From a virus (lineage: Duplodnaviria; Heunggongvirae; Uroviricota; Caudoviricetes): 10,902 nt of DNA. The position numbers and the translations under genes are program-made. Below the pieces are notes generated by a model. It saw nothing but the letters and a program-made list of their open reading frames with translations, was not told the DNA's origin and searched no databases. How positions within the stretch are numbered: position 1 is the stretch's first letter; every line of letters starts with the position of its first letter. Shown here piece by piece: positions 1 to 10,902 of the stretch. Location: the IMG/VR virus record IMGVR_UViG_2531839668_000016; one strand, 5' to 3'.

Positions 1-405
1 ATGGATCAGGTCGTTGTTTTTCAAAAGATGTTTGAGCAAGTGAGAAAAGAGCAAAACTTCTCCTGGTTTTATTCAGAATTAAAACATCACCGTATTGCAC
101 ATTACATTTATTATCTGGCTACGGATAACATCAGAATTATTACTCACGATGATACGGTTTTGTTATTAAGAGGAACCAGGAACCTGTTAAAAGTTAGTAC
201 GACCAAGAACCCTGCTAAAATAAAAGAGGCCGCATTGCTTCATATTTGCGGAAAATCTACATTTCGGGAATACTGTTCAACACTGGCAGGCGCGGGCGTT
301 TTCCGGTGGGTTACTGATGTTAATCATAACAAACGCAGTTACTACGCCATTGATAATACGCTTTTATATATTGAAGATGTAGAAAATAATAAACCATTAA
401 TCTAG
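1..405 (+). CDS. ycgX: YcgX-like DUF1398-family protein (chromosomal flank)
   Basis: Complete 134 aa ORF starting at window position 1. Sequence and length match my recollection of E. coli YcgX, and its position next to iraM and the icd fragment matches the K-12 order icdC-iraM-ycgX. Not verified by search. Confidence 0.55.
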   Translation: MDQVVVFQKMFEQVRKEQNFSWFYSELKHHRIAHYIYYLATDNIRIITHDDTVLLLRGTRNLLKVSTTKNPAKIKEAALLHICGKSTFREYCSTLAGAGVFRWVTDVNHNKRSYYAIDNTLLYIEDVENNKPLI

Positions 406-620
406 CTAAAGTTGGATACTTAAGAAATGCTTCATAATTCAGTAAGGCATTAGCATAATGGAAATAAAAGTGCAGAGACTATCTCTATGGATGATTAATA
501 CTGTCTTTTTATTGTCACCCATAAATAATCACCAGACTAATACTATCAACTTGATATTTGAAATGTGATCACTTGACTTTTGATACGTTATTTTATAACG
601 GTTAACATATTTATAAAAAC

Positions 621-643
621 AACGGCCGTGCCACACGTCCGTT
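621..643 (-). terminator. Hairpin (AACGGCCGT / ACGTCCGTT, one mismatch) with a T-rich tail on the minus strand; paralogous to the icd terminator at 1482-1504
   Basis: Inverted repeat seen directly. About 50 bp around it (ataaaaacaacggccgtg...ccgtttcaatacttaacgcacatg) aligns with 1476-1523. No minus-strand ORF lies upstream, so its function is unclear. Confidence 0.3.
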
Positions 644-1036
644 TCAATACTTAACGCACATGTATTTTGGTTTAGTCATCATCCGGTTATATGTATTTTA
701 GCCAGGAACAGGTTAAATCATTCCTATATAACTCAAAAATTGAAACCTTATTCTCATGTCATGCTTATATTCATTATTATCGTTATATAAAAAGGCAACC
801 ATAATGTTTAGCAAATTGGCACAAAGTAGCATAAAGGCTATGTTTTAATTACAGGATGTTCAGTCATTTGAATGTATAACATTATAGCTAAACAAATCTA
901 AAACGAAGTCAATAATTTATTGCTTTCACAAAATCTCATTTTGTTTAACATCCATTGAGATTCCTTGCTTTAAATTTTATTTTATATAAGCCATCATTTT
1001 AATTAATTTATTTTTTGAGGGGGGTAATATACTCAT

Positions 1037-1105
1037 ATGCAAAATCAAGAAATAAACATCCTAATGAACCATATTAAATACCGTGGGATAAGACATAACA
1101 AATGA
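1037..1105 (+). CDS. 22-codon upstream ORF ([22 protein letters not shown]) whose stop overlaps the iraM start (ATGA)
   Basis: ATG at 1037 preceded by a GAGGGGGG purine-rich stretch. The TGA at 1103-1105 overlaps the iraM ATG at 1102-1104. Candidate leader peptide only. Confidence 0.3.
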
Positions 1106-1425
1106 AGTGGATAGTAATTGACACGGTAATTCAACCTACATGTGGTATATCTTTTTCAGCCATATGGGGTAATATGAAAATGATCATCTGGTATCAATCT
1201 ACTATATTTCTCCCTCCTGGCAGTATATTTACACCGGTTAAGTCTGGTATTATCCTTAAGGATAAAGAATATCCTATTACTATTTATCACATCGCACCAT
1301 TCAACAAGGATTTATGGAGTTTACTCAAAAGCAGTCAAGAGTGTCCTCCAGGAGAAAGCAAAATAACAAATAAATGTTTACATAATAGTTGCATTATAAA
1401 AATATGCCCATATGGGCTCAAGTAA
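1102..1425 (+). CDS. iraM: IraM anti-adaptor protein (RssB inhibitor, RpoS stabiliser)
   Basis: 107 aa ORF. Sequence matches my recollection of E. coli IraM ([18 protein letters not shown]...), and the position immediately next to the icd 3' pseudo-fragment matches K-12 synteny. Confidence 0.65.
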
Positions 1426-1481
1426 TGGGCTTCATATAAATATGCTCGATATGCTATTAATAATATCCACATAAATAAAAC

Positions 1482-1504
1482 AACGGGCGTGTTATACGCC
1501 CGTT
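1482..1504 (-). terminator. Rho-independent terminator of icd (perfect 9-bp stem AACGGGCGT / ACGCCCGTT, 5-nt loop), possibly bidirectional for iraM
   Basis: Perfect inverted repeat seen directly. On the minus strand it is followed by GTTTTATTTATG. It lies 24 bp downstream of the icd-fragment stop codon, between the convergent iraM and icd fragment. Confidence 0.5.
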
Positions 1505-1527
1505 TCAATATTTAACACATGGAGAGA

Positions 1528-1692
1528 TTACATGTTTTCGATGATCGCTTCACCAAACTCTGAACATTTCAGCAGCTTAGCGCCTTCCATCAGACGTTCG
1601 AAGTCATAAGTTACGGTCTTGGCATTGATTGCGCCTTCCATACCTTTAACAATCAGGTCAGCCGCTTCAGTCCAACCCATATGGCGCAGCAG
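1528..1692 (-). pseudogene. icd: 3' fragment of isocitrate dehydrogenase gene (icdC-like); att core duplication of an icd-integrating prophage
   Basis: Minus-strand translation reads [54 protein letters not shown], which is the Icd C-terminus. There is no upstream coding continuation, and homology ends near 1692. Confidence 0.85.
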
Positions 1693-1882
1693 TATATAAA
1701 AACCATGAATTCAAGTCATTGATATTTAACGATAAAAATTATTTTATTGTCTTTTTATTAGCCAAAATAAACTTTATTCAACCGTTTGATTTCATTGACG
1801 TTCGTTTTTATTTTGGGGAAAGGTTTTCTCTACCATTTATATCCAAATTACAAGTCTACATTTTATTAACATCTCAATACAT

Positions 1883-1916
1883 GTGAGGCCTTGCAGACCT
1901 TTGTGAGACCTTATGT
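1883..1916 (+). repeat. Three closely spaced GNCCTT-containing direct repeats in the presumptive att arm
   Basis: tgtgaGGCCTTgcaGACCTTtgtgaGACCTTatgtg seen directly, about 200 bp on the phage side of the att core. Function is inferred only. Confidence 0.3.
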
Positions 1917-1955
1917 GTCTCTGTTTTGTCCCAACTTATGTTAAGAGGCACATAA

Positions 1956-2036
1956 TTAAAAATAAGATAACGATGCCGCCAAGCAGTGCAAAACCTTGTT
2001 TACTCCACGACTGTCTGCCCCATTATCTGCATACAT
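1956..2036 (-). CDS. Small ORF (26 aa, MYADNGADSRGVNKVLHCLAASLSYF) with a strong Shine-Dalgarno
   Basis: GGAGGA at 2043-2048 on the minus strand, 6 nt upstream of the ATG at 2036. No recognisable family. Confidence 0.2.
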   Translation of the reverse strand: MYADNGADSRGVNKVLHCLAASLSYF

Positions 2037-2427
2037 AATTATCCTCCATAACTGAGATAAATGTCGGTTATGAGCGAACAACAGACGTTTAGTTTATGAT
2101 GGCTGTGTCTATACATTAAACATAACATCCATTACCGGCACCGCTTATTAATTGCTATCTGATATTGTCACTAAAAAAATAGGCATTCCCCGATATAATA
2201 ATCACAAAGAAGCTTTTGGTGCTGGCAATCGGTATACCTCATAGTGGACTGCGACTTTCCGGGCACGACAAGGATATATCAATGTATGAGCAGGAAAATT
2301 AGACCGTGGTGCGTCATATGATGACTAAGCACGGATAACAGCTACTTAATTGAAACTATTGATTATATTACAGCCAGTGCCTTATAGGATGGTTAGTCAT
2401 CAACCGCGACTCCTGCACAATCATGGG

Positions 2428-3513
2428 CTATTGCCAGCAATTGTTTTTAATTGCTTTAGCATCTACCGTCATATCTACTGTAGCAAAATGGATCTTATGT
2501 CCCTGAGTGACAACATACTCATTAAGCATATAGCCAACAGCTGGATGAAGTAGAAGACCAGCGGCATTGAGCGAAAGCGGATCCGTCTTGTTCTCCTGTG
2601 TTCTAAGGTAGGTATATAGCTGATAAATATAGCCATTACGTAGTGATTGCTCCCGATGCCAACCCTTTGTCAGAATCGAATTAAATTTGGTATCGATAAT
2701 AATACGCCGCTGGGCAGTCTTGTGTTCCAGAATAATGTCTGACTTCATTGTCGGGAAAATCTCTGCACTACCTGCACTTTGATCGCTCAACGCCCATTTC
2801 AGCTCTTTCCCTGCAGAGACCTGCCAAGTTGTTTTGGCAAGGTGTACACGATATAAGCCAGCGATACCTTTTTCAAATAGTCTTCTCATCCAGTAAAGGT
2901 TATTTGAGGGCGCAGGTAAAAGATATTGGCCTTGATCTTCGGTCGGCATCAGCAGTTCAAAAGCTAATCGTGCGGCATCGACCATCGGTTTATCTGCGGC
3001 ATCATGGCGTCCAAAACGCCACACTGAGGGTAATTCGCGGGGGGCAGGATATCCTCCATTTATCCCCTCACGGCGAAGTGATATTGCCATAAAATGGCAA
3101 TCTGCCGCCAAAGACGGTTTCACTATGATTGAGGCCAGACGTTCTAACGCACAGCGAACATAGCGATTTCGGGGGGTGTTGAGGGTTATGTCTTGAAAAT
3201 GGCAGGCAACCTGTCCCCGTTCCAGCAGTTGATGACTGGCAGTATACAGTATGTCAATGCGCCCTCTCACCCGGTTCAGGGCCGCATGACAAGTTTGGTA
3301 TCCCATATTTAAATTGCGACGTCGGCGCAGCGTAATCTCATGAAGGAGGATTGTCGCCACCAGGTCGGGGATTTCTGCTGGGTTATCTTCTACTGCGATC
3401 TGATTGCGCCCTAACTGGCGAAACAGATCTGAAGCGTACAGCATCAGCATCCAGATATTTCGCATGGGAATACGTGATGCTGTATGTTGCTCACTCCCGG
3501 TTATTGTCGTCAT
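2428..3513 (-). CDS. McrC-like nuclease subunit of a McrBC-type (type IV, modification-dependent) restriction system
   Basis: 361 aa. Its ATG overlaps the stop of the upstream McrB-like gene (ATGA at 3510-3513). Size is similar to McrC (348 aa), and the C-terminal region has a PD-(D/E)xK-like stretch (DIILEHK...IIIDTKF). Confidence 0.65.
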   Translation of the reverse strand: MTTITGSEQHTASRIPMRNIWMLMLYASDLFRQLGRNQIAVEDNPAEIPDLVATILLHEITLRRRRNLNMGYQTCHAALNRVRGRIDILYTASHQLLERGQVACHFQDITLNTPRNRYVRCALERLASIIVKPSLAADCHFMAISLRREGINGGYPAPRELPSVWRFGRHDAADKPMVDAARLAFELLMPTEDQGQYLLPAPSNNLYWMRRLFEKGIAGLYRVHLAKTTWQVSAGKELKWALSDQSAGSAEIFPTMKSDIILEHKTAQRRIIIDTKFNSILTKGWHREQSLRNGYIYQLYTYLRTQENKTDPLSLNAAGLLLHPAVGYMLNEYVVTQGHKIHFATVDMTVDAKAIKNNCWQ

Positions 3514-5492
3514 TTTGCTAATAACACTTTTCTGGCTTCATCGACTTTATTTGGAGCATCGAACCAATATTCGGCGAGCAAAGGGCAGATCTCTGTATCA
3601 ACGACTTGTTCATACCAAGCCTGGGCATCGTTGATTTTTTGGCCGATAGCTGGGGTGACATAGCTGTGACCGATACAAAACTGTGGTCCTAAGGTAACAT
3701 CTTTTGCCAGCATATCGTTTAATACCGTCAGTCGAGATTTGATGAATGCTAACATGTCAAAATCAATTGCGTAATTATAATTTACCCAGTTTCTCCACGC
3801 GTCATTAAAAGCTGGCTTTAGATCGATAAACGCGAAACGACGGCGCAGCGCTAGGTCAAGTAGTGCGAGTGAGCGGTCTGCAATATTCATCGTACCGATG
3901 ATATATAGATTCTCAGGAATGTATATTTTTTCATCAGCATTTTTAGGATAGGAAAGAGATAATGCCTCAGTCGGCGTGCGTTTATCTGCTTCCATCAACG
4001 TGAGTGTTTCACCGAAGATTTGCGCCGGATTGCCACGATTAATCTCTTCAATTATCACCACATATTTCGAGGTAGGATTATTGACTGCAGTTTTGATTGC
4101 ATTTACAAAAGGTCCATCAATTAGCGTCAATTGCCCTTCTTTACCTGGACGCCAGCCTCGAATAAAGTCTTCGTAAGAGAGGTTCGGGTGAAATTGCACC
4201 GCGCTAATACGCTCAGGTGCTTTTTCTCCCATCAAGCAGTACGCCAGACGTCGCGCTAACCAAGTTTTTCCAGTTCCGGGTGGTCCTTGTAATATCAGGT
4301 TTTTCTTGTCGATCAGGCGCTGAAGTGTGAGTTGGATCTTAGCCTCTTCCAAGAAACAGCCATCCTGCACCAGATGACTGATGTCATAAGGAACGTGGGT
4401 GAGTTTTGGCAACAGCGCACTCTCTTCGACAGTTTCCTCAGTTATCGTCTGGGATTCGTTTTTCTCAAAATTCAGGTATTCATAATTTCCGGACTCGAGG
4501 GACTTTAACTCATCATCATTGCATAGTTTCTGTAGATAAAAGTAGATTGAGCTTGTAACAGTTTTGCTCTCAGGATGCTCTACCTTGAATACGTCCAAGT
4601 AGTTTTCTTCCAACTCCGAAGCAGTGAAATAAGGGCCATTTTTTTTCAGGCATAACGCCTTAATTTTATTCAGTAAAGAGGCTTTCCACGTTCTATTTGC
4701 CACCTCATCTTTAGACTGGCTAAGATCTGTATTCCACGCTGATAAGGAAAGTTCTGGGAAAGAATGAACCGGATAGTTTGGTTGGGTAAAGACCTCGTTC
4801 AGCGCCCGCATAAGACTCAGGTAACTTTGTCCACTACAGCGACCTTTTGCCCCGTTTTTAATGATCTTAATGTTTAACACTGTCTGAATGTAATACTGCG
4901 ACTGGCTATCTAAAGTGGGGTAGAACCAAGGACGGGTCCAGTACAACCCCATGGTGAGATTCCAACCGACATTCATTACTGTAGAAGCGATGTCATATGC
5001 GGCAGTGAAGTCTGCAGAGTTAGTATTCTGGTTATCCGCAAAGATCATTGCCTGTGAGAACATTTCCCACAAGCATTCAATGTCATTAGGGTCGCGTGAC
5101 TTTTCATAACCAAAGAACCAAGATTTTTGGTTATTCAACAGAGGGATTCCGGCAAAGGAGTCAGGAATCGGTTCGTTCACGCCCAACAAATTCGCTAGCT
5201 TGGCAGCAATAATTTTGCGATTGCTGTCGGTCAAGTTACGATTGAACAAGCCCATAGTAGTAAACGGACAAATGTCTTTTAAGGGAAAGATCTCTCCCAT
5301 AATAGATTTGTCCTGCAGATGGGACATTCCTTCCACACCCGAGGCAATTAGATGAATACCTTTGACTAATTCATCTCTACGATTTCGCCAAGTCAGTAAC
5401 GCGTTGGCAAAAGCCTCATAAAAACTAGCCCAAGCAAACTTGCCATCATGTTCTGCTGTATCCACGGGAACTCCATTATACTTGTTGAGCAA
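3510..5492 (-). CDS. McrB-family AAA+ GTPase with a large uncharacterised N-terminal domain (~390 aa)
   Basis: Walker A GPPGTGKT at aa 403-410 (nt 4263-4286). VVIIEEINRGN...FGETLTLMEADKR and the IIGTMNIADRSLALLDLALRRRFAFIDL block closely parallel E. coli McrB (FIIDEINRAN..., MNTADRSLAVVDYALRRRF). The N-terminal 390 aa are unrelated to the E. coli McrB DNA-binding domain. The annotated start is TTG; an in-frame GTG 9 codons downstream has a better SD. Confidence 0.8.
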   Translation of the reverse strand: MLNKYNGVPVDTAEHDGKFAWASFYEAFANALLTWRNRRDELVKGIHLIASGVEGMSHLQDKSIMGEIFPLKDICPFTTMGLFNRNLTDSNRKIIAAKLANLLGVNEPIPDSFAGIPLLNNQKSWFFGYEKSRDPNDIECLWEMFSQAMIFADNQNTNSADFTAAYDIASTVMNVGWNLTMGLYWTRPWFYPTLDSQSQYYIQTVLNIKIIKNGAKGRCSGQSYLSLMRALNEVFTQPNYPVHSFPELSLSAWNTDLSQSKDEVANRTWKASLLNKIKALCLKKNGPYFTASELEENYLDVFKVEHPESKTVTSSIYFYLQKLCNDDELKSLESGNYEYLNFEKNESQTITEETVEESALLPKLTHVPYDISHLVQDGCFLEEAKIQLTLQRLIDKKNLILQGPPGTGKTWLARRLAYCLMGEKAPERISAVQFHPNLSYEDFIRGWRPGKEGQLTLIDGPFVNAIKTAVNNPTSKYVVIIEEINRGNPAQIFGETLTLMEADKRTPTEALSLSYPKNADEKIYIPENLYIIGTMNIADRSLALLDLALRRRFAFIDLKPAFNDAWRNWVNYNYAIDFDMLAFIKSRLTVLNDMLAKDVTLGPQFCIGHSYVTPAIGQKINDAQAWYEQVVDTEICPLLAEYWFDAPNKVDEARKVLLAK

Positions 5493-5825: not shown

Positions 5826-6409
5826 TTATTCCATAACAGGGATTGCAGGCCACTCAATATCAGGTGCAGTTGATGTATCAACACGATTCAGCAACACCCG
5901 ATACTTCTTCCAGGCTTCAAGCAACGAGGTTTCTTCCTCCGTTGCGATTTCCAGATCTGCAGCATCCTGAAGCGGGGCAATATGCTCACTGGCTACCTGC
6001 ATCAGGCTGTTTTTGTTTCTTCCGCCTCCCGGATCCGGAACAGTTTTTCTGCTTCCGTATCCTTCACCCAGGCTGTGCCGTTCCACTTCTGAAACTCCCC
6101 TTCCGGGGATAACCAGGTGATATTTTCCGGTAGAGGTCCGAGTTCAGAAATAAATAACGAGTCGCCGGAAGCCACGTCATAGACGGTTTTTCCCCGATGA
6201 TCTTCAACGAGATGCCACGATGCCTCATCACTGTTGAAAACAGCCACGAAGCCTACCGGAATATCTGGCGGTGCAATATAGGTACTGTTTGCTGGCAGAC
6301 CTGTATGAGGCGGAATATATGCGTCACCTTCACCAATAAATTCATTAGTTCCGGCCAGCAGATTATAAATTTTTATGGTCCGTGGTTGTTCACTCATTCT
6401 GAATGCCAT
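5826..6409 (-). pseudogene. tfa: Tail fibre assembly protein (Tfa, lambda/e14 TfaE-like), frameshifted
   Basis: Two overlapping ORFs in different frames (6002-6409 and 5826-6086) together give [15 protein letters not shown]...REAEETK / [22 protein letters not shown]...[10 protein letters not shown], i.e. a full Tfa. The frame break is in an A-run at 6008-6017. Confidence 0.8.
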
Positions 6410-6537
6410 TATGCAAGCCTCACAATGTAGTTAAATGCGATGTTTTTGACGGTGTTTTCCGCGTTACCAGCAGCGTTAACGGTGATGGTGTGTCCATGTG
6501 AGCCAATCGCAACGGAGTGCGTATGAGCACCAATACC
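6409..6537 (-). pseudogene. stf: C-terminal fragment (~42 aa) of side tail fibre protein Stf
   Basis: Minus-strand frame gives [42 protein letters not shown], and its TAA overlaps the tfa ATG (TAATG). Nothing upstream is Stf-like. Confidence 0.7.
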
Positions 6538-6632
6538 TGTGGCTTTTCGTCGTACTGTTCCGGCATGTTGTTGGCGATCCGACGCATCTGCTCACGGTCA
6601 AAGTTAACCATCTGTGCGGCGATGTTTTTCAT
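6535..6632 (-). pseudogene. P: N-terminal fragment (~33 aa) of lambda replication protein P
   Basis: [33 protein letters not shown] matches the lambda P N-terminus, after which the frame runs into out-of-frame stf sequence. Its start overlaps the O-fragment stop (ATGA). Confidence 0.75.
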
Positions 6633-6865
6633 AGATCCACCCCGTAAATCCAGTCAGTGTTTGTCAGGTCGAGTTTTGGTTTGCCGACTGTCACGCCAGC
6701 CTGTTGCTTGTTCCGGTTGATTTCGAGCTGGGTCCACTTGTCGCGGAGTTTGGCCGGACTCAGCACGTTACCGGACCAGAAGTTGTCCTGGCAGGCCCAG
6801 CGGAACAGTACACACATGTCGCGGTGGTTACGTCCATCACGTTCACGCATCAGACGGATATCGTT
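6629..6865 (-). pseudogene. O: C-terminal fragment of lambda replication initiator O
   Basis: ...[56 protein letters not shown] matches the lambda O C-terminus. Upstream, the reading frame runs into antisense exo sequence. Confidence 0.75.
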
Positions 6866-7519
6866 ACCGGGATCGACGTGAGAGCTGTCGAACAGGGGGA
6901 TGATGCGTGGCACAAATTACGGCTCGGCGTCATCACCGCTTCAGAAGTTCACAACGTGATAGCAAAGCCCCGCTCAGGAAAGAAGTGGCCTGACATGAAA
7001 ATGTCCTACTTCCACACCCTGCTTGCCGAGGTTTGCACCGGTGTGGCTCCGGAAGTTAACGCTAAAGCACTGGCCTGGGGAAAACAGTACGAGAACGACG
7101 CCAGAACCCTGTTTGAGTTCACTTCCAGCGTAAATGTTATTGAATCCCCGATCATCTATCGCGACGAAAGTATGCGCACCGCCTGCTCTCCCGATGGTTT
7201 ATGCAGTGACGGCAATGGCCTTGAACTGAAATGCCCGTTTACCTCCCGGGATTTCATGAAGTTCCGGCTCGGTGGTTTCGAGGCCATAAAGTCGGCTTAC
7301 ATGGCCCAGGTGCAGTACAGCATGTGGGTGACGCGAAAAGATGCCTGGTACTTTGCCAACTATGACCCGCGTATGAAGCGTGAAGGCCTGCATTATGTCG
7401 TGGTTGAGCGGGATGAAAAGTACATGGCGAATTTTGACGAGATGGTGCCGGAGTTCATCGAAAAAATGGACGAGGCACTGGCTGAAATTGGTTTTGTATT
7501 TGGGGAGCAATGGCGATGA
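6866..7519 (+). pseudogene. exo: Lambda exonuclease (Red-alpha, Exo), 5'-truncated (lacks ~first 9 codons)
   Basis: [56 protein letters not shown]...[11 protein letters not shown] is near-identical to lambda Exo from residue ~11 to the end. The upstream 55 codons of the 6704 ORF are antisense to the O fragment and are not Exo. Confidence 0.85.
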
Positions 7520-7674
7520 CGCATCCTCACGATAATATCCGGGTAGGCGCGATCACTTTCGTCTACTCCATTACAAAGCGAGGCTGGGTATTTCCCGGCC
7601 TTTCTGTTATCAGAAATCCACTGAAAGCACAGCGGCTGGCTGAGAAGATAAATAACAAACAGGAGGATATATGA
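7516..7674 (+). CDS. Small ORF (52 aa, [52 protein letters not shown]), coupled on both sides
   Basis: Its ATG overlaps the exo stop (ATGA at 7516-7519), and its TGA overlaps the ATG of the DGQHR gene (ATGA at 7671-7674). Positionally it corresponds to the small orfs following exo in lambda. Confidence 0.5.
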
Positions 7675-8735
7675 GTCAGGTTGGTAATCATTCATTCGAA
7701 TTTCCGGCATCGCAAGGTGTACAGGGTGGTACTGTTACACTCTTCCTTACCATACCAGGAAGATCGCTGGCTCGTTTCCTCGCTTCAGATAATTACGGCC
7801 ATACACTGGAACGCTCTCAGCGAGAAATTAATCCAAATCGAGTACGAAAATTTTTAAATTATCTCACTAACGCAGACTCAAGAAATGAGCCTTTTATCAT
7901 TCCCCCTCTCGTAGGTAACTGTGATTCGAATATAGAATTTGTACCGTTTGGCAACACAAATGTTGGTATAGCCAGAATTCCCCTCGACGCCGAAATAAAA
8001 CTTTTTGATGGTCAACATCGTGCAGCTGGCATTGAGATATTTTGCCGAAGTTCCCCATCAACGCTCATGGTTCCCATGATGCTTACAATGAATCTGCCGC
8101 TAAAAACCCGGCAGCAGTTCTTTTCGGACATAAATAACAACGTTTCTAAGCCATCAGCGACCATCAATATGGCGTATAACGGCCGGGATGATATTGCTCA
8201 GGGAATGATATCCTTCCTGACCCAACATACTGTATTTGCCGATATAACCGATTTTGAACACAACGTAGTGCCATTAAAAAGTAATATGTGGGTGAGTTTC
8301 AAGGCACTCACTGATGCAACGTCAAAGTTCGCTAGGAACGGCAATCAACAACTTGAAATGGGATATATAGAATCTGTCTGGGAGGCATGGATTACACTAA
8401 CTCAGATTGACTCAATCCGACATGGTGTACACCACGCTACGTACAAGCGCGATTATATTCAGTTCCATGGAGTAATGATTAACGCTTTCGGTTTTGCGGT
8501 TCAACAGATGATGGTTAATCATTCCATCGCAGAAATAACTTCTATGATCGAAAAACTATGTGCAACTACCAGCTCTGCAGAAAGAGAGGATTTTTTTCTG
8601 ATGGATAACTGGGCGGGGATCTGCACGAAAGCCAGCCAGGAAAAACTATCTGTTATTGCCAATGTGGCAGCGCAGAAAGCAGCAGCAAACAGACTGATAC
8701 AAGCTTTTACCAAAGGAAGTCTGGAAACAACTTAA
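7671..8735 (+). CDS. DGQHR-domain protein (DndB-like, ParB/Srx-like fold)
   Basis: 354 aa with an exact DGQHR motif (KLFDGQHRAAGIE, aa 113-117, nt 8007-8021). SD CAGGAGGA lies upstream, and the gene is translationally coupled to the preceding small ORF. Confidence 0.75.
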   Translation: MSQVGNHSFEFPASQGVQGGTVTLFLTIPGRSLARFLASDNYGHTLERSQREINPNRVRKFLNYLTNADSRNEPFIIPPLVGNCDSNIEFVPFGNTNVGIARIPLDAEIKLFDGQHRAAGIEIFCRSSPSTLMVPMMLTMNLPLKTRQQFFSDINNNVSKPSATINMAYNGRDDIAQGMISFLTQHTVFADITDFEHNVVPLKSNMWVSFKALTDATSKFARNGNQQLEMGYIESVWEAWITLTQIDSIRHGVHHATYKRDYIQFHGVMINAFGFAVQQMMVNHSIAEITSMIEKLCATTSSAEREDFFLMDNWAGICTKASQEKLSVIANVAAQKAAANRLIQAFTKGSLETT

Positions 8736-8812
8736 TGAATCAACATTGTCTCATATCAGCATGCTGTACGGCGTCTTTAAGGAACGGTGAGCATGAAAAA
8801 CAAAATCATCAT

Positions 8813-8833
8813 GGAGCTACAGGCTCCTTTTTT
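8813..8833 (+). terminator. Candidate rho-independent terminator (GGAGC-tacag-GCTCC followed by TTTTTT)
   Basis: 5-bp GC-rich stem and a 6-T run seen directly, downstream of the DGQHR gene. The stem is short, so this is weak. Confidence 0.35.
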
Positions 8834-8888
8834 ATTATTCGCATTCACCCTCAAGCGTATTAACCAACAATTCAGGGATTAATGAAAG

Positions 8889-9107
8889 ATGGCAGACATC
8901 ATTGATTCAGCATCAGAAATTGAAGAATTACAGCGCAACACAGCAATAAAAATGCGCCGCCTGAACCACCAGGCTATATCTGCCACTCATTGTTGTGAGT
9001 GTGGCGATCCGATAGATGAACGAAGACGCCTGGCCGTTCAGGGTTGTCGGACTTGTGCAAGTTGCCAGGAGGAGATCGAACTTAAGAACAAACAATGGGG
9101 ACTGTGA
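8889..9107 (+). CDS. TraR/DksA-family C4 zinc-finger protein (phage-type)
   Basis: 72 aa with CxxC-x17-CxxC (CCECGD...CRTCASC) in a DksA/TraR-like C-terminal arrangement. Such genes are common in lambdoid early-left regions. Confidence 0.7.
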   Translation: MADIIDSASEIEELQRNTAIKMRRLNHQAISATHCCECGDPIDERRRLAVQGCRTCASCQEEIELKNKQWGL

Positions 9108-9154: not shown

Positions 9155-9394
9155 ATGTTCAGAATCATTTTTCCTAACACCTGGTACGTCGACCACCACG
9201 GCACTCCCTGCAAAATCCTGCGTTCTACCCACAACAAAGTTCACTACATCCGAAAAGGCAGAACATGTATCGCCAGCATGTTCCGCTTTAATCATGACTT
9301 TGAACCTGTGAATAAAGCTGATGCAGATCGGATAGCAGAAGAGATCGAAACGGCAGAACACATTAAGAAGTTACGTGCCATACGCAGGAAATAG
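9155..9394 (+). CDS. Small phage protein of unknown function (early-left region)
   Basis: 79 aa ORF with SD GAGGTG 5 nt upstream of the ATG, lying between the TraR-like gene and xis. Confidence 0.5.
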   Translation: MFRIIFPNTWYVDHHGTPCKILRSTHNKVHYIRKGRTCIASMFRFNHDFEPVNKADADRIAEEIETAEHIKKLRAIRRK

Positions 9395-9533: not shown

Positions 9534-9770
9534 ATGTCTCGACTAATCACTTTACAGGACTGGGCTAAAGAAGAATTTGGGGACTTAGCACCAAGTGAGC
9601 GAGTTCTGAAAAAATACGCGCAAGGGAAAATGATGGCCCCACCCGCTATAAAAGTTGGTCGCTACTGGATGATTGACCGAAATTCCCGTTTTGTAGGAAC
9701 GCTTGCAGAACCGCAACTCCCAATAAACGCAAACCCAAAACTCCAACGGATAATCGCTGATGGCTGCTAG
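9534..9770 (+). CDS. xis: Excisionase (Xis-like recombination directionality factor)
   Basis: 78 aa with strong SD AAGAGGAGGA. It sits immediately upstream of int and overlaps it by 11 nt. The N-terminal LITLQDWA...PPAIKVGRYW resembles lambda Xis (YLTLQEW...PPPVKDGREY). Confidence 0.65.
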   Translation: MSRLITLQDWAKEEFGDLAPSERVLKKYAQGKMMAPPAIKVGRYWMIDRNSRFVGTLAEPQLPINANPKLQRIIADGC

Positions 9771-10902
9771 ACCCCGATCTCACAAAATCTCTATACCCAA
9801 TTTATATTGCAAATTAGATAAGCGAACCGGAAAGGTATATTGGCAATACAAACATCCACTATCCGGTCGTTTTCATAGCTTAGGAACTGATGAGAATGAA
9901 GCAAAACAAGTTGCTACTGAAGCAAATACCATTATTGCTGAACAACGTACCAGACAAATATTAAGCGTCAATGAGCGTCTGGAAAGAATGAAAGGCAGGC
10001 GCTCAGACATTACGGTGACAGAATGGCTTGATAAATATATTTCTATCCAGGAGGACAGGCTGCAACATAATGAACTAAGACCCAACTCCTATCGGCAAAA
10101 AGGCAAACCCATTCGTCTTTTCCGTGAGCATTGTGGAATGCAACACCTCAAGGATATTACCGCACTTGATATTGCCGAAATAATTGATGCTGTAAAGGCT
10201 GAAGGTCATAACAGGATGGCGCAAGTCGTGAGAATGGTGTTGATCGACGTCTTCAAAGAAGCACAACACGCAGGACATGTTCCGCCAGGATTTAACCCTG
10301 CGCAGGCAACAAAACAACCGCGAAATCGAGTAAACCGCCAAAGATTGTCACTGCTCGAATGGCAGGCAATATTTGAAAGCGTAAGCAGACGGCAGCCCTA
10401 TTTAAAATGCGGCATGCTACTTGCTCTTGTTACTGGACAACGTTTAGGCGATATCTGCAATTTGAAATTCTCTGATATATGGGACGACATGTTGCACATT
10501 ACTCAGGAAAAAACCGGTTCAAAACTTGCTATTCCGCTTAACCTGAAATGCGATGCTCTGAATATTACCCTTCGTGAAGTTATATCTCAGTGCAGGGATG
10601 CTGTTGTTAGTAAATATCTGGTCCATTACCGTCACACTACCTCTCAAGCAAACAGAGGAGACCAGGTTTCTGCAAATACTCTGACAACGGCTTTTAAAAA
10701 GGCCCGGGAAAAATGTGGCATAAAATGGGAGCAAGGAACTGCGCCCACATTTCATGAGCAGCGATCTCTCTCAGAACGGTTATATCGGGAACAGGGTCTG
10801 GATACGCAAAAGTTGTTAGGCCATAAATCCAGAAAAATGACCGACCGATACAATGATGATCGTGGTAAAGACTGGATTATCGTAGATATCAAAACAGCAT
10901 AG
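9760..10902 (+). CDS. int: Lambda-family tyrosine integrase
   Basis: 380 aa. N-terminus MAARPRSHKISIPNLY resembles lambda Int MGRRRSHERRDLPPNLY. C-terminal catalytic region has GQRLGD, HEQRSLSERLY, LGHKS and RYNDDRGKDW, paralleling lambda HELRSLSARLY...LGHKS...YRDDRGREW. Confidence 0.9.
   Translation: MAARPRSHKISIPNLYCKLDKRTGKVYWQYKHPLSGRFHSLGTDENEAKQVATEANTIIAEQRTRQILSVNERLERMKGRRSDITVTEWLDKYISIQEDRLQHNELRPNSYRQKGKPIRLFREHCGMQHLKDITALDIAEIIDAVKAEGHNRMAQVVRMVLIDVFKEAQHAGHVPPGFNPAQATKQPRNRVNRQRLSLLEWQAIFESVSRRQPYLKCGMLLALVTGQRLGDICNLKFSDIWDDMLHITQEKTGSKLAIPLNLKCDALNITLREVISQCRDAVVSKYLVHYRHTTSQANRGDQVSANTLTTAFKKAREKCGIKWEQGTAPTFHEQRSLSERLYREQGLDTQKLLGHKSRKMTDRYNDDRGKDWIIVDIKTA

Follow-up and report, generated by a model that had tools for sequence, protein, structure and literature searches.

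A stand-alone DGQHR-family gene in the early-left operon of a decayed lambdoid prophage, and its relatives on phages and plasmids

Introduction

Proteins of the DGQHR-domain family are recognised by three signature motifs, the QR pair, DGQHR and FxxxN (PMC4619093). The locus considered here lies in a stretch of 10,902 nucleotides of Caudoviricetes DNA (IMG/VR virus record IMGVR_UViG_2531839668_000016, referred to below as the window) and raises the question of what such a protein does on its own in the early-left operon of a lambdoid prophage. An earlier note, made from the sequence, had left superinfection exclusion and counter-defence side by side as candidate roles. The literature searched yielded no work on a DGQHR protein that stands alone in a phage or plasmid, and a preprint on hotspots makes no mention of the slot that the gene occupies.

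The gene and its family

The gene opens at position 7671 (Table 1); position 7516, which the earlier note had given as its start, is the start of the preceding DUF1317 ORF. The exact DGQHR motif claimed in that note was borne out by reading the sequence. RefSeq already labels the window's copy 'DGQHR domain-containing protein'.

Table 1. Coordinates of the DGQHR gene, its motifs and the neighbouring features in the window.
Feature	Position	Strand	Evidence or remarks
exo', lambda-type exonuclease (YqaJ) without about 9 N-terminal codons	6865..7519	+	Pfam YqaJ 1.4e-28
DUF1317 ORF, lambda orf60a family, 52 codons	7516..7674	+	Pfam DUF1317 4.4e-31; phrog_1998
Stand-alone DGQHR/DndB-family gene	7671..8735	+	354 aa; predicted N-terminal ParB/Srx-fold NTP-binding domain and C-terminal helical domain
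RSQRE, 'QR pair' motif of DGQHR domains	7812..7826	+	residues 48-52; invariant in 83 homologues
DGQHR motif	8007..8021	+	residues 113-117; read as GAT GGT CAA CAT CGT
FFSDINNN, FxxxN motif of DGQHR domains	8118..8141	+	residues 150-157
Terminator-like hairpin GGAGC-TACAG-GCTCC and T run	8813..8837	+	78 nt past the DGQHR stop
TraR/DksA-type C4 zinc-finger gene, next in operon	8889..9107	+	profile matches, RefSeq locus
DUF4222 gene	9155..9394	+	profile matches, RefSeq locus
Excisionase	9534..9770	+	Pfam Exc; RefSeq annotation
Lambda-type tyrosine integrase, prophage end	9760..10902	+	Pfam Arm-DNA-bind_1 and Phage_integrase

Judged on sequence, the presence of the DGQHR motif is far above what chance would give. 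Among 83 homologues four residues of DGQHR (D113, G114, Q115, R117) are invariant and the fifth, H116, is kept in at least 90%, and in the FxxxN motif F150, F151, D153, I154, N155 and N157 are invariant with S152 and N156 kept in at least 90%. By analogy with the GxxRxxA motif (PMC10164549), DGQHR is the counterpart of ParB box II, the P-motif GxxR that binds NTP phosphates. The P-motif-type arginine, R117, is intact in the window protein, for which NTP binding is a prediction. The gene is under purifying selection: of the changes that distinguish 18 alleles, 18 are synonymous and 8 non-synonymous (pN/pS about 0.13).

By its profile matches the window protein is placed in the DGQHR/DndB family, in a small distinct clade carried on mobile elements. 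It passes the cut-offs of Pfam DndB (PF14072; E=3.8e-46, 158.2 bits, cut-off 29.1) and of the TIGR03187 DGQHR domain (188.8 bits, cut-off 58.85), and matches PHROG 7901 (E=7e-216), a group that has no functional annotation. DndB was the sole match in the Pfam search, which gave no match to DUF262 models. No match to PF02195 or HTH_ParB, the marks of a canonical ParB, was obtained at E<=0.1; the match to a ParB-like PHROG was weak (E=0.011) and parA is absent near the gene at the identical E. coli locus. Homology to the characterised anti-restriction families ArdA, ArdB/KlcA, Ocr and Ral was not found in the window protein. The family comprises 80 clusters (50% identity) at E<=1e-30 and 844 at E<=1e-3. 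Ten longer relatives, drawn from the 150 best matches, were scanned, and the sole informative fusion among them joined PAPS-reductase to DndB; none of the ten carried a methyltransferase or nuclease fusion and their extensions at either end were otherwise without a Pfam domain.

The structural model of the window protein has a ParB/Srx NTP-binding domain, with the ParB/sulfiredoxin fold at the N-terminus, followed by a helical domain, and its structural matches include BrxU and SspE. A recognisable HTH was found neither by Pfam nor in the model. Osa of pSa and the N-domains of GmrSD, BrxU, SspE and DndI are also ParB/Srx-fold NTPases of inter-element conflict, and Osa and the N-domains of GmrS, SspE and DndI serve as precedents for a role in defence or superinfection exclusion, in which a nicking ParB/Srx NTPase, acting alone and expressed from the prophage or plasmid, would attack or block other elements on entry. 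We regard such a role as unlikely. The GmrSD/SspE/DndI architecture, a DUF262 N-domain with an HNH/DUF1524 nuclease, was not found in the window protein, which has no recognisable HNH/DUF1524 domain at all, and PADLOC run on the window matched the DndB model only and no solitary defence family. Further evidence on exclusion comes from the state of the locus and from its relatives.

The prophage remnant

The window's prophage is a remnant, and the DNA upstream of about 6865 is unrelated to it. Homology with other lambdoid exo genes begins at query position 1366, equivalent to about 6865 in the window, and the exo' ORF as called mechanically (6704-7519) reaches into this unrelated DNA; at the identical RefSeq locus exo' is 219 aa long, against 226 aa in intact relatives. 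The DUF1317 ORF shows 94.5% nucleotide identity to lambda orf60a. The stop/start overlaps that were noted earlier are real: the exo' stop codon TGA (7517-7519) lies within the ATGA at 7516-7519 that starts the DUF1317 ORF, which itself ends within the ATGA (7671-7674) at the start of the DGQHR gene. The locus is 100% identical in E. coli FORC 064, and in the identical genome icd adjoins the integrase. The claim that the gene lacks dnd and dpd partners was upheld both in the window and within 20 kb either side in FORC 064, where no such gene was found.

Co-expression with the recombination module, as proposed in the earlier note, describes the ancestral arrangement. In the window the gene is an orphan: its prophage has decayed, its operon has been severed from pL, and a search for promoter-like sites found none. 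Since the native pL promoter is gone and the prophage is decayed, the DGQHR gene may be silent here. No methyltransferase gene follows it. This copy is an ordinary passenger of its decayed prophage, possibly a regulator or partner that has been orphaned.

Two features of this setting could be taken in favour of exclusion. At least two different decayed prophages of E. coli retain the gene intact, here beside an McrBC-like system and at a second locus, on the DLP12/argU side, beside RexAB. It also has a moron-like look, the GC content falling from 53% to 42% at its 5' boundary and a terminator-like hairpin following the gene. Retention in remnants is, however, a weak sign of benefit to the host and tells little, because the exact remnant is found in only 8 of 5426 genomes. 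The hairpin sits in a 153-nt gap unique to the window's allele group, other lineages having ATGA overlaps, and is itself weak evidence because the count of such terminator-like sites was not above shuffled expectation.

Relatives in phages

In intact relatives (approximately 120 loci) the DGQHR gene lies in the early-left operon, past a recombination module (exo/bet, RecT or ERF) and ahead of xis/int. The gene thereby comes at the distal end of early operons in temperate phages, and in lambdoid phages the slot carries alternative cassettes: DUF1382, a Dam-type methyltransferase, a DpdA-like TGT (phage SfI) or DGQHR. This agrees with the earlier view of it as a lambdoid accessory-gene position, and the DGQHR gene is an accessory early gene of mobile elements. 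Temperate phages with the family infect Enterobacterales and marine Gammaproteobacteria. No dnd or dpd gene was found at any of the approximately 120 loci, which extends the lack of such partners to the whole clade. In addition, 22 Vibrio phages, mostly V. crassostreae phages of about 83 kb, carry homologues, and in Vibrio phages genes for DNA ligase and RdgC lie near the gene; no tyrosine integrase could be detected in PS14A.1, the one genome of this group that was examined.

The constancy of this position invites the suggestion that the protein is a recombination or replication accessory, a DNA-end or ssDNA helper of Exo/Bet, RecT or ERF unrelated to immunity. The gene is always just downstream of the recombination module, whether that is of exo/bet, RecT or ERF-like type, and replication and repair genes lie near it both in the Vibrio phages and on plasmids, where SSB, RadC and MucAB are found close by. 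DGQHR is nevertheless missing from most lambdoid phages that share these recombination genes (of the 3502 complete E. coli genomes matching an exo-end/DUF1317/DGQHR query, 282 have it at full length), and the gene persists at loci where bet and exo have been deleted. An accessory function of this kind is therefore judged very unlikely.

After dereplication at 90%, a DNA methyltransferase was found at +1 to +3 downstream of the DGQHR gene, and never upstream, in 12 of 38 lineages. The Pfam families of these enzymes are unrelated and number at least five (MT-A70, Dam PF05869, N6_N4, C5 and D12). Isolated phages whose hosts are distant from one another share the arrangement: the order in Salmonella phage SPN1S is DUF1317, DGQHR, MT-A70, int, and that in Vibrio phage Va_PF430-3_p42 is DGQHR, C5 methyltransferase, int. 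No methyltransferase adjoins the gene in two thirds of the lineages, among them the window's allele group (32 copies). According to the earlier note, homologues that always occurred next to a known modification cluster would imply a mere orphaned regulator; with the gene directly upstream of a methyltransferase in 12 of 38 lineages this is partly the case, although the modification gene is never dnd or dpd. As a control on the slot, 80 DUF1317 loci were compared, and none of the 59 without DGQHR had a methyltransferase, but the set consisted of near-identical E. coli alleles and is too redundant to be decisive. In RefSeq, Dam-type methyltransferases do occur directly after DUF1317 without DGQHR. 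As the lambdoid slot thus holds methyltransferases without DGQHR too, the association may be partly an effect of the slot. Translational coupling was rejected as evidence of partnership because the ATGA overlap of DGQHR with the downstream gene is seen whatever the identity of that gene. A restriction-modification-like pair, with DGQHR as the restriction part and a cognate methyltransferase, was also rejected, because two thirds of lineages lack the enzyme and the methyltransferases are common orphan phage types.

Relatives on plasmids

Homologues 37-43% identical to the window protein are present in 1071 plasmid records, of which 885 are conjugative. Plasmid leading regions have been described as anti-defence islands in which orphan methyltransferases abound (PMC11541004), and the plasmid homologues lie in such leading, first-transferred regions, in anti-restriction islands beside KlcA/ArdB, ArdR, PsiA and SSB. 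In IncL/M plasmids the order is RadC, HTH, DGQHR, DUF4942, KlcA/antirestriction, SSB and then oriT/NikA-MobA, with all transcription of the leading-region genes directed toward oriT. An IncN-like plasmid has the order DGQHR, ArdB, ArdR, ccgD, ccgC, and on further plasmids PsiA comes after DGQHR, and Antirestrict PF03230 and DUF932 lie close by. The copy on the epidemic plasmid pOXA-48 is interrupted by IS1 and the gene is therefore dispensable there. At the level of identity observed, the function of the plasmid clade may differ.

These neighbourhoods bear directly on exclusion. The operons that contain the gene are early-lytic or zygotic ones, and not cassettes expressed in the lysogen from a separate promoter; the genes around it serve anti-restriction and not defence; and homologues occur in apparently non-temperate Vibrio phages. 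Counter-defence is favoured over superinfection exclusion on account of the plasmid anti-restriction islands, the orphan methyltransferases and the apparently integrase-less Vibrio phages. The neighbours suggest an anti-restriction role for incoming DNA, although they fall short of proof.

Proposed role and significance

We tentatively propose, as a possible reading, that the DGQHR protein is an NTP-gated DNA-binding accessory that aids modification or anti-restriction during establishment. The protein would dimerise and bind DNA under the control of ATP or GTP. This part of the proposal is inferred from the biochemistry of DndB, a homodimeric, ATP-modulated DNA binder, of DpdB, whose ATPase activity drives the DNA modification carried out by DpdA, and of a DndB-like protein that binds ATP and GTP. 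Soon after DNA entry the protein would, to judge from its genomic context, aid the escape of the element from restriction. The likeliest route would run through a partner methyltransferase, encoded by the element or perhaps by the host, whose modification of DNA the protein would promote or tune. DGQHR and its methyltransferase would then correspond, as two separate proteins, to the ParB-methyltransferase fusions that prophages commonly carry.

A wider version of this proposal, which we consider doubtful, is that stand-alone DGQHR proteins form a new establishment or anti-restriction class in which an ATP/GTP-gated ParB-like clamp loads on the entering element. Once loaded, the clamp might recruit or accelerate DNA methyltransferases, or shield the DNA from restriction. 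The class would be common to temperate and some virulent phages and to conjugative plasmids of several backbones (IncL/M, with the pOXA-48 lineage among them, as well as IncN-like and others), and the theme of a ParB-like NTPase with a DNA-modifying enzyme, known from DndB and DpdB, would extend from sulfur and deazaguanine to ordinary methylation.

If the contextual reading is right, an NTP-driven ParB-like helper would be a new type of anti-restriction factor, neither a DNA mimic nor a plain methyltransferase. It would have a bearing on how resistance plasmids (more than 1000, including carbapenemase-spreading IncL/M) and prophages cross restriction barriers, and the DndB/DpdB architecture would be a portable adaptor for various DNA-modifying enzymes. 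Were the protein an exclusion factor instead, it would represent a defence system of a single gene that current catalogues lack.

Comparison with known systems

The closest well-described relative is DndB of dndBCDE loci such as that of Salmonella enterica Cerro 87, with which the window protein has the PF14072/TIGR03187 domains and all three motifs in common. The two are of similar length (361 aa for DndB, 354 for the window protein) and can be aligned over 280 residues; against a dndC-linked DndB the window protein shows 25% identity (E=1e-23). DndB heads a modification operon, and in related phages DGQHR likewise comes first and overlaps a DNA-modification gene. Unlike at DndB loci, neither dndCDE nor dndA is near any of the approximately 120 DGQHR loci, and whereas DndB heads its own autoregulated operon the window-type gene sits inside phage or plasmid early operons. 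The DndB box TACGN10CGTA is absent from the window even with one mismatch, no convincing conserved palindrome was found near the DGQHR gene, and the regulatory Cys29 of DndB is not kept, aligning to Ile28. DndB proper was therefore rejected as the identity of the window protein, on the grounds of its score with the TIGR03233 equivalog model (106.9 bits, below the 328-bit cut-off), the low identity, the lack of dnd linkage and box, and the replacement of the cysteine.

The same comparison bears on two further explanations. DndB is a sequence-specific autoregulator acting on dndBCDE (PMC4507180), and the succession of DGQHR and a modification gene with overlapping codons mirrors that of dndB and dndC. 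The window protein might accordingly be an NTP-modulated homodimeric repressor that times or doses the downstream accessory genes, or that acts on phage or host promoters. Such a regulator is decidedly unlikely: the phage gene is chained to upstream genes and so lacks a separate promoter for autoregulation, the genes downstream are highly variable, and the box, the cysteine linked to DndB binding and a recognisable HTH are all missing. The likeness to DndB also allows an antagonist or decoy that disturbs host DndBCDE/DndFGH, Ssp or DndI and so counters phosphorothioate defence. Dnd does occur in E. coli (dndC in 207 of 5426 genomes) and phages are known to counter it (PMC12345140). Set against this are the distance from DndB and the loss of the DNA box and key cysteine, the rarity of Dnd in hosts (3.8%) compared with the spread of the DGQHR gene across many genera and plasmids, and the consideration that repression of dndBCDE would leave unmodified phage DNA exposed to DndFGH. 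We regard a decoy as exceedingly unlikely.

DpdB, the partner of the DNA transglycosylase DpdA, has the motif DGQQR and a DUF262-like ATPase domain and is required by DpdA (PMC10164549). It is DUF262/SspE-like, whereas the window protein has DGQHR and gives no DUF262 match. Neither dpdA nor dpdC is present, the window and related DGQHR loci contain no TGT-like or DUF328 gene, and the DpdA-like TGT of phage SfI occupies the same slot without a DGQHR gene. A DpdB-like identity was rejected because of the motif and because only DndB/DGQHR models were matched. The comparison with DndB and DpdB put forward in the earlier note holds for the DndB family and does not extend to DpdB.

Fusions of a ParB fold to a methyltransferase are enriched in prophages, and a DndB-like bacterial protein has been shown to bind ATP and GTP in vitro (PMC12704722). 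In such fusions of prophages and plasmid leading regions (PMC11541004), for example ParBc with N6_N4, a ParB/Srx module is likewise tied to an orphan methyltransferase in elements that have to establish themselves in a new host. In the DGQHR clade, unlike in the fusions, the genes are separate and linked by adjacency, and the module is of the DGQHR subfamily and not PF02195. Only a third of the clade's lineages show the methyltransferase link, and the window does not.

The accessory genes of the pL operon include the restriction alleviation genes of lambda (Ral) and Rac (Lar), proposed to aid unmodified DNA by boosting its modification. Ral, which is small and acts on EcoKI, has no kinship in sequence or fold with the DGQHR protein, for which the role proposed here is a similar one.

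The DGQHR gene and its family

An exact DGQHR motif lies at nt 8007-8021, as the earlier note had it, and the chain of overlapping stop and start codons described there takes the form of an ATGA overlap at both junctions (exo'/52-codon ORF and 52-codon ORF/DGQHR gene). The feature start of 7516 given in that note is the ATG of the 52-codon ORF, a member of the DUF1317 family and homologue of lambda orf60a, and not that of the DGQHR gene (7671). GC content drops from ~53% in exo to ~42% across the DGQHR gene. This gene is conserved and under selection: across 54 near-identical copies from E. coli, representing 18 alleles, there are 18 synonymous and 8 non-synonymous changes (pN/pS ~0.13), with a premature stop in one allele. 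Viral contig L072 has an allele in which a premature stop (E47*) leaves a 222-aa ORF.

The product is a ParB/Srx-fold protein of the DGQHR family, scoring 188.8 bits against TIGR03187 (DGQHR domain; curated threshold 58.85) and 158 bits against Pfam DndB (curated threshold 29); the DndB model is also its sole match in PADLOC. With the DndB equivalog model it reaches 107 bits, far under the 328-bit cut-off, and its identity to DndB proper (genuine, dndC-linked) is 25%. The alternative of a DndB-like transcription regulator seems doubtful. The RSQRE, DGQHR and FFSDINNN motifs are kept in 83 homologues, being invariant, or at least 90% conserved at H116, S152 and N156. The comparison with DndB/DpdB made in the earlier note holds only at the superfamily level because DpdB, the ATPase that powers DpdA, carries DGQQR and is DUF262-like (PMC10164549). 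PHROGs places the protein in family 7901 (function unknown), and the existing annotation is 'DGQHR domain-containing protein'. The gene encodes a DndB-family protein recruited to the early regions of mobile elements.

The last ~85 residues show 83-88% identity to the nearest other allele group (P0002) as against 60-80% elsewhere, which suggests a recombination breakpoint within the gene. In the allele group of the window the DGQHR gene is separated from TraR and DUF4222 by a 153-nt gap, within which lies a terminator-like hairpin. A 42-codon ORF that begins at the DGQHR stop (TAATG) and contains the hairpin has no credible homologue (phrog E=0.075); rather than a gene, it probably marks a recombination joint peculiar to this allele group.

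A decayed prophage at icd

The window, which matches E. coli strains FORC 064 and O157:H16 98-3133 at 100% identity, is what remains of a lambdoid prophage inserted at icd, the e14 attachment site.

Features of the prophage remnant
Feature	Position (nt)	Strand	Remarks
ycgX (DUF1398), iraM, icd fragment	left end of window		
McrBC-like two-gene system	2428-5492	minus	
McrC gene	2428-3513	minus	PF10117
McrB-like AAA gene	3510-5492	minus	660-aa AAA_5 ATPase
Tail-fibre assembly gene, replication gene O and P fragments	between McrB-like gene and exo'		
exo'	before DUF1317	plus	
DUF1317 ORF	7516-7674	plus	52 codons
DGQHR gene	7671-8735	plus	354 aa
42-codon ORF	8735-8863		
Terminator-like hairpin	8813-8827		
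TraR/DksA zinc-finger gene, DUF4222, xis, int	after DGQHR gene, in this order	plus	

The exo' gene lacks about nine 5' codons; likeness to other lambdoid phages begins at ~6865, upstream of which lies unrelated, inverted debris. The DGQHR copy is therefore severed from pL, and a consensus scan found no promoter-like site upstream in the window. Of 5426 complete E. coli genomes, only 8 contain this exact remnant and 282 carry a full-length DGQHR gene, mostly within other prophages. In the window the gene is an orphaned passenger whose expression may be absent.

The same remnant carries the McrBC-like system, adjoined by an IS66 element in FORC 064. The first ~380 residues of its ATPase have no Pfam match, so the DNA-reading domain differs from that of known McrB. 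In K-12, icd is the locus where e14 carries mcrA. An identical DGQHR allele is found in a second, differently decayed E. coli prophage (L128-L130), beside fimZ and sfm-type fimbrial genes, which has lost bet and exo and retains a cI-like repressor, RexA/RexB, KilR and Gam, with DGQHR, TraR and DUF4222 all intact.

Relatives in phages, prophages and plasmids

A word-indexed search returned 247 clusters of relatives; the 120 listed are mostly from Enterobacterales, at 53-73% identity. Exhaustive HMMER search of 1.84 billion representatives gave 844 matches at E<=1e-3, of which no more than 80 reached E<=1e-30, indicating a small family. One library protein of 697 aa (P0261) has a PAPS-reductase (DndC-like PP-loop) domain fused to the DndB domain.

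Neighbourhoods were surveyed by calling ORFs and clustering neighbours at 41 loci from genomes and 80 from viruses. None contained dnd or dpd genes, extending to the homologues the absence of such partners first noted in the window; the family is solitary in this respect. The DGQHR gene consistently comes after a recombination module, whether exo/bet, RecT or ERF-like, often with DUF1317 immediately before it, and xis/int follow. The predicted co-expression with the recombination module agrees with gene order in relatives and would be ancestral for the window copy, cut off from pL. An accessory role in recombination would suit this order, but appears improbable. In Klebsiella oxytoca-type prophages (L131; L113, L115, L118-L120, L122) a ParB-HTH protein of 262-297 aa is encoded directly upstream and overlaps the DGQHR gene, placing two different ParB-superfamily genes in tandem.

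Homologues were present in 22 Vibrio phages, most of them ~83-kb Vibrio crassostreae phages, as a 490-aa version (31-33% identity). No integrase was detected in one of these phage genomes by a profile that recovers those of two control phages; the family is therefore not restricted to lysogens.

By tblastn, homologues (~360-430 aa, 37-43% identity) occur on 1071 plasmids, of which 885 are conjugative. The IncL/M order is RadC-JAB, HTH, DGQHR, DUF4942, KlcA/antirestriction and SSB, then MobC, oriT and NikA-MobA; all these genes are directed toward oriT, as expected for leading-region genes read off the transferred strand. Leading regions are documented as anti-defence islands in which orphan methyltransferase, SSB and Psi genes abound (PMC11541004). 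The homologue is intact (427 aa) on other IncL/M plasmids such as CP009857.1 and interrupted by IS1 in the epidemic carbapenemase plasmid pOXA-48 (NZ_CP085868.1, 63,589 bp; 5989-8048). On the IncN-like (MOBF/MPF_T) plasmid NZ_CP116079.1 (6989-9311) it lies directly upstream of ardB-ardR within an anti-restriction/ccg block adjoined by mucAB, and on Buttiauxella-type plasmids psiA follows it, with Antirestrict (PF03230), DUF932 and DUF1281 genes near. That the protein is a specific anti-Dnd decoy is very improbable.

Association with DNA methyltransferases

Dereplication at 90% identity left 38 lineages. In 12 of these, one of the next three same-strand genes (+1 to +3) encodes a DNA methyltransferase; such a gene is never found upstream. 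The enzymes come from five or more unrelated Pfam families (MT-A70, Dam PF05869, N6_N4, C5 and D12). Two isolated phages of distant hosts have like gene orders: DUF1317, DGQHR, MT-A70, int in Salmonella phage SPN1S and DGQHR, C5 methyltransferase, int in Vibrio phage Va_PF430-3_p42. In a Pseudoalteromonas phage, C5 methyltransferase and PAPS-reductase-like genes flank the DGQHR copy.

Prophages of Salmonella, Klebsiella and Enterobacter (L004, L081, L084, L087 and others) encode a further protein of 154-179 aa between DGQHR and the methyltransferase. It is of two types, one with repeated HTH segments that give weak, sub-threshold GcrA-like matches, the other with a Cys-rich C-terminal motif. 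There is a hint here of a module in which DGQHR, an HTH protein and a methyltransferase are grouped. The position directly after DUF1317 (orf60a; 7674/7671 junction) is a cassette hotspot in lambda, SfI and E. coli prophages, occupied by DUF1382 (lambda orf63), a Dam-type N6-adenine methyltransferase, a DpdA-like queuine tRNA-ribosyltransferase (phage SfI) or the DGQHR gene; DNA modification is the theme of three of these four options.

Proposed role

On phages and plasmids the family is housed in regions expressed early or zygotically, repeatedly beside orphan methyltransferases and anti-restriction genes. It is this family-wide pattern, rather than the window copy, that gives the finding its weight and makes the family a candidate, cheap to test, for a new mechanism of anti-restriction or exclusion; the observation in the earlier note stands and its interpretation is partly supported. 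By homology with DndB (PMC4507180), with a DndB-like protein that binds ATP/GTP (PMC12704722) and with the DpdB ATPase, the protein would dimerise and bind DNA under ATP/GTP control. Given the methyltransferase and anti-restriction neighbours, we think an NTPase-nickase acting in exclusion or defence unlikely.

From gene context we tentatively favour a role in the establishment of incoming phage or plasmid DNA, most likely in helping or governing DNA modification. Against this, pOXA-48 thrives with its DGQHR gene disrupted, no methyltransferase is adjacent in most lineages or in the 32 copies of the allele group to which the window belongs, the lambdoid slot after DUF1317 also houses methyltransferases without DGQHR, and codons overlap whichever gene lies downstream. 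ParB-methyltransferase fusions are enriched in prophages (PMC12704722), and a DGQHR protein with a separate neighbouring methyltransferase may be their split analogue.
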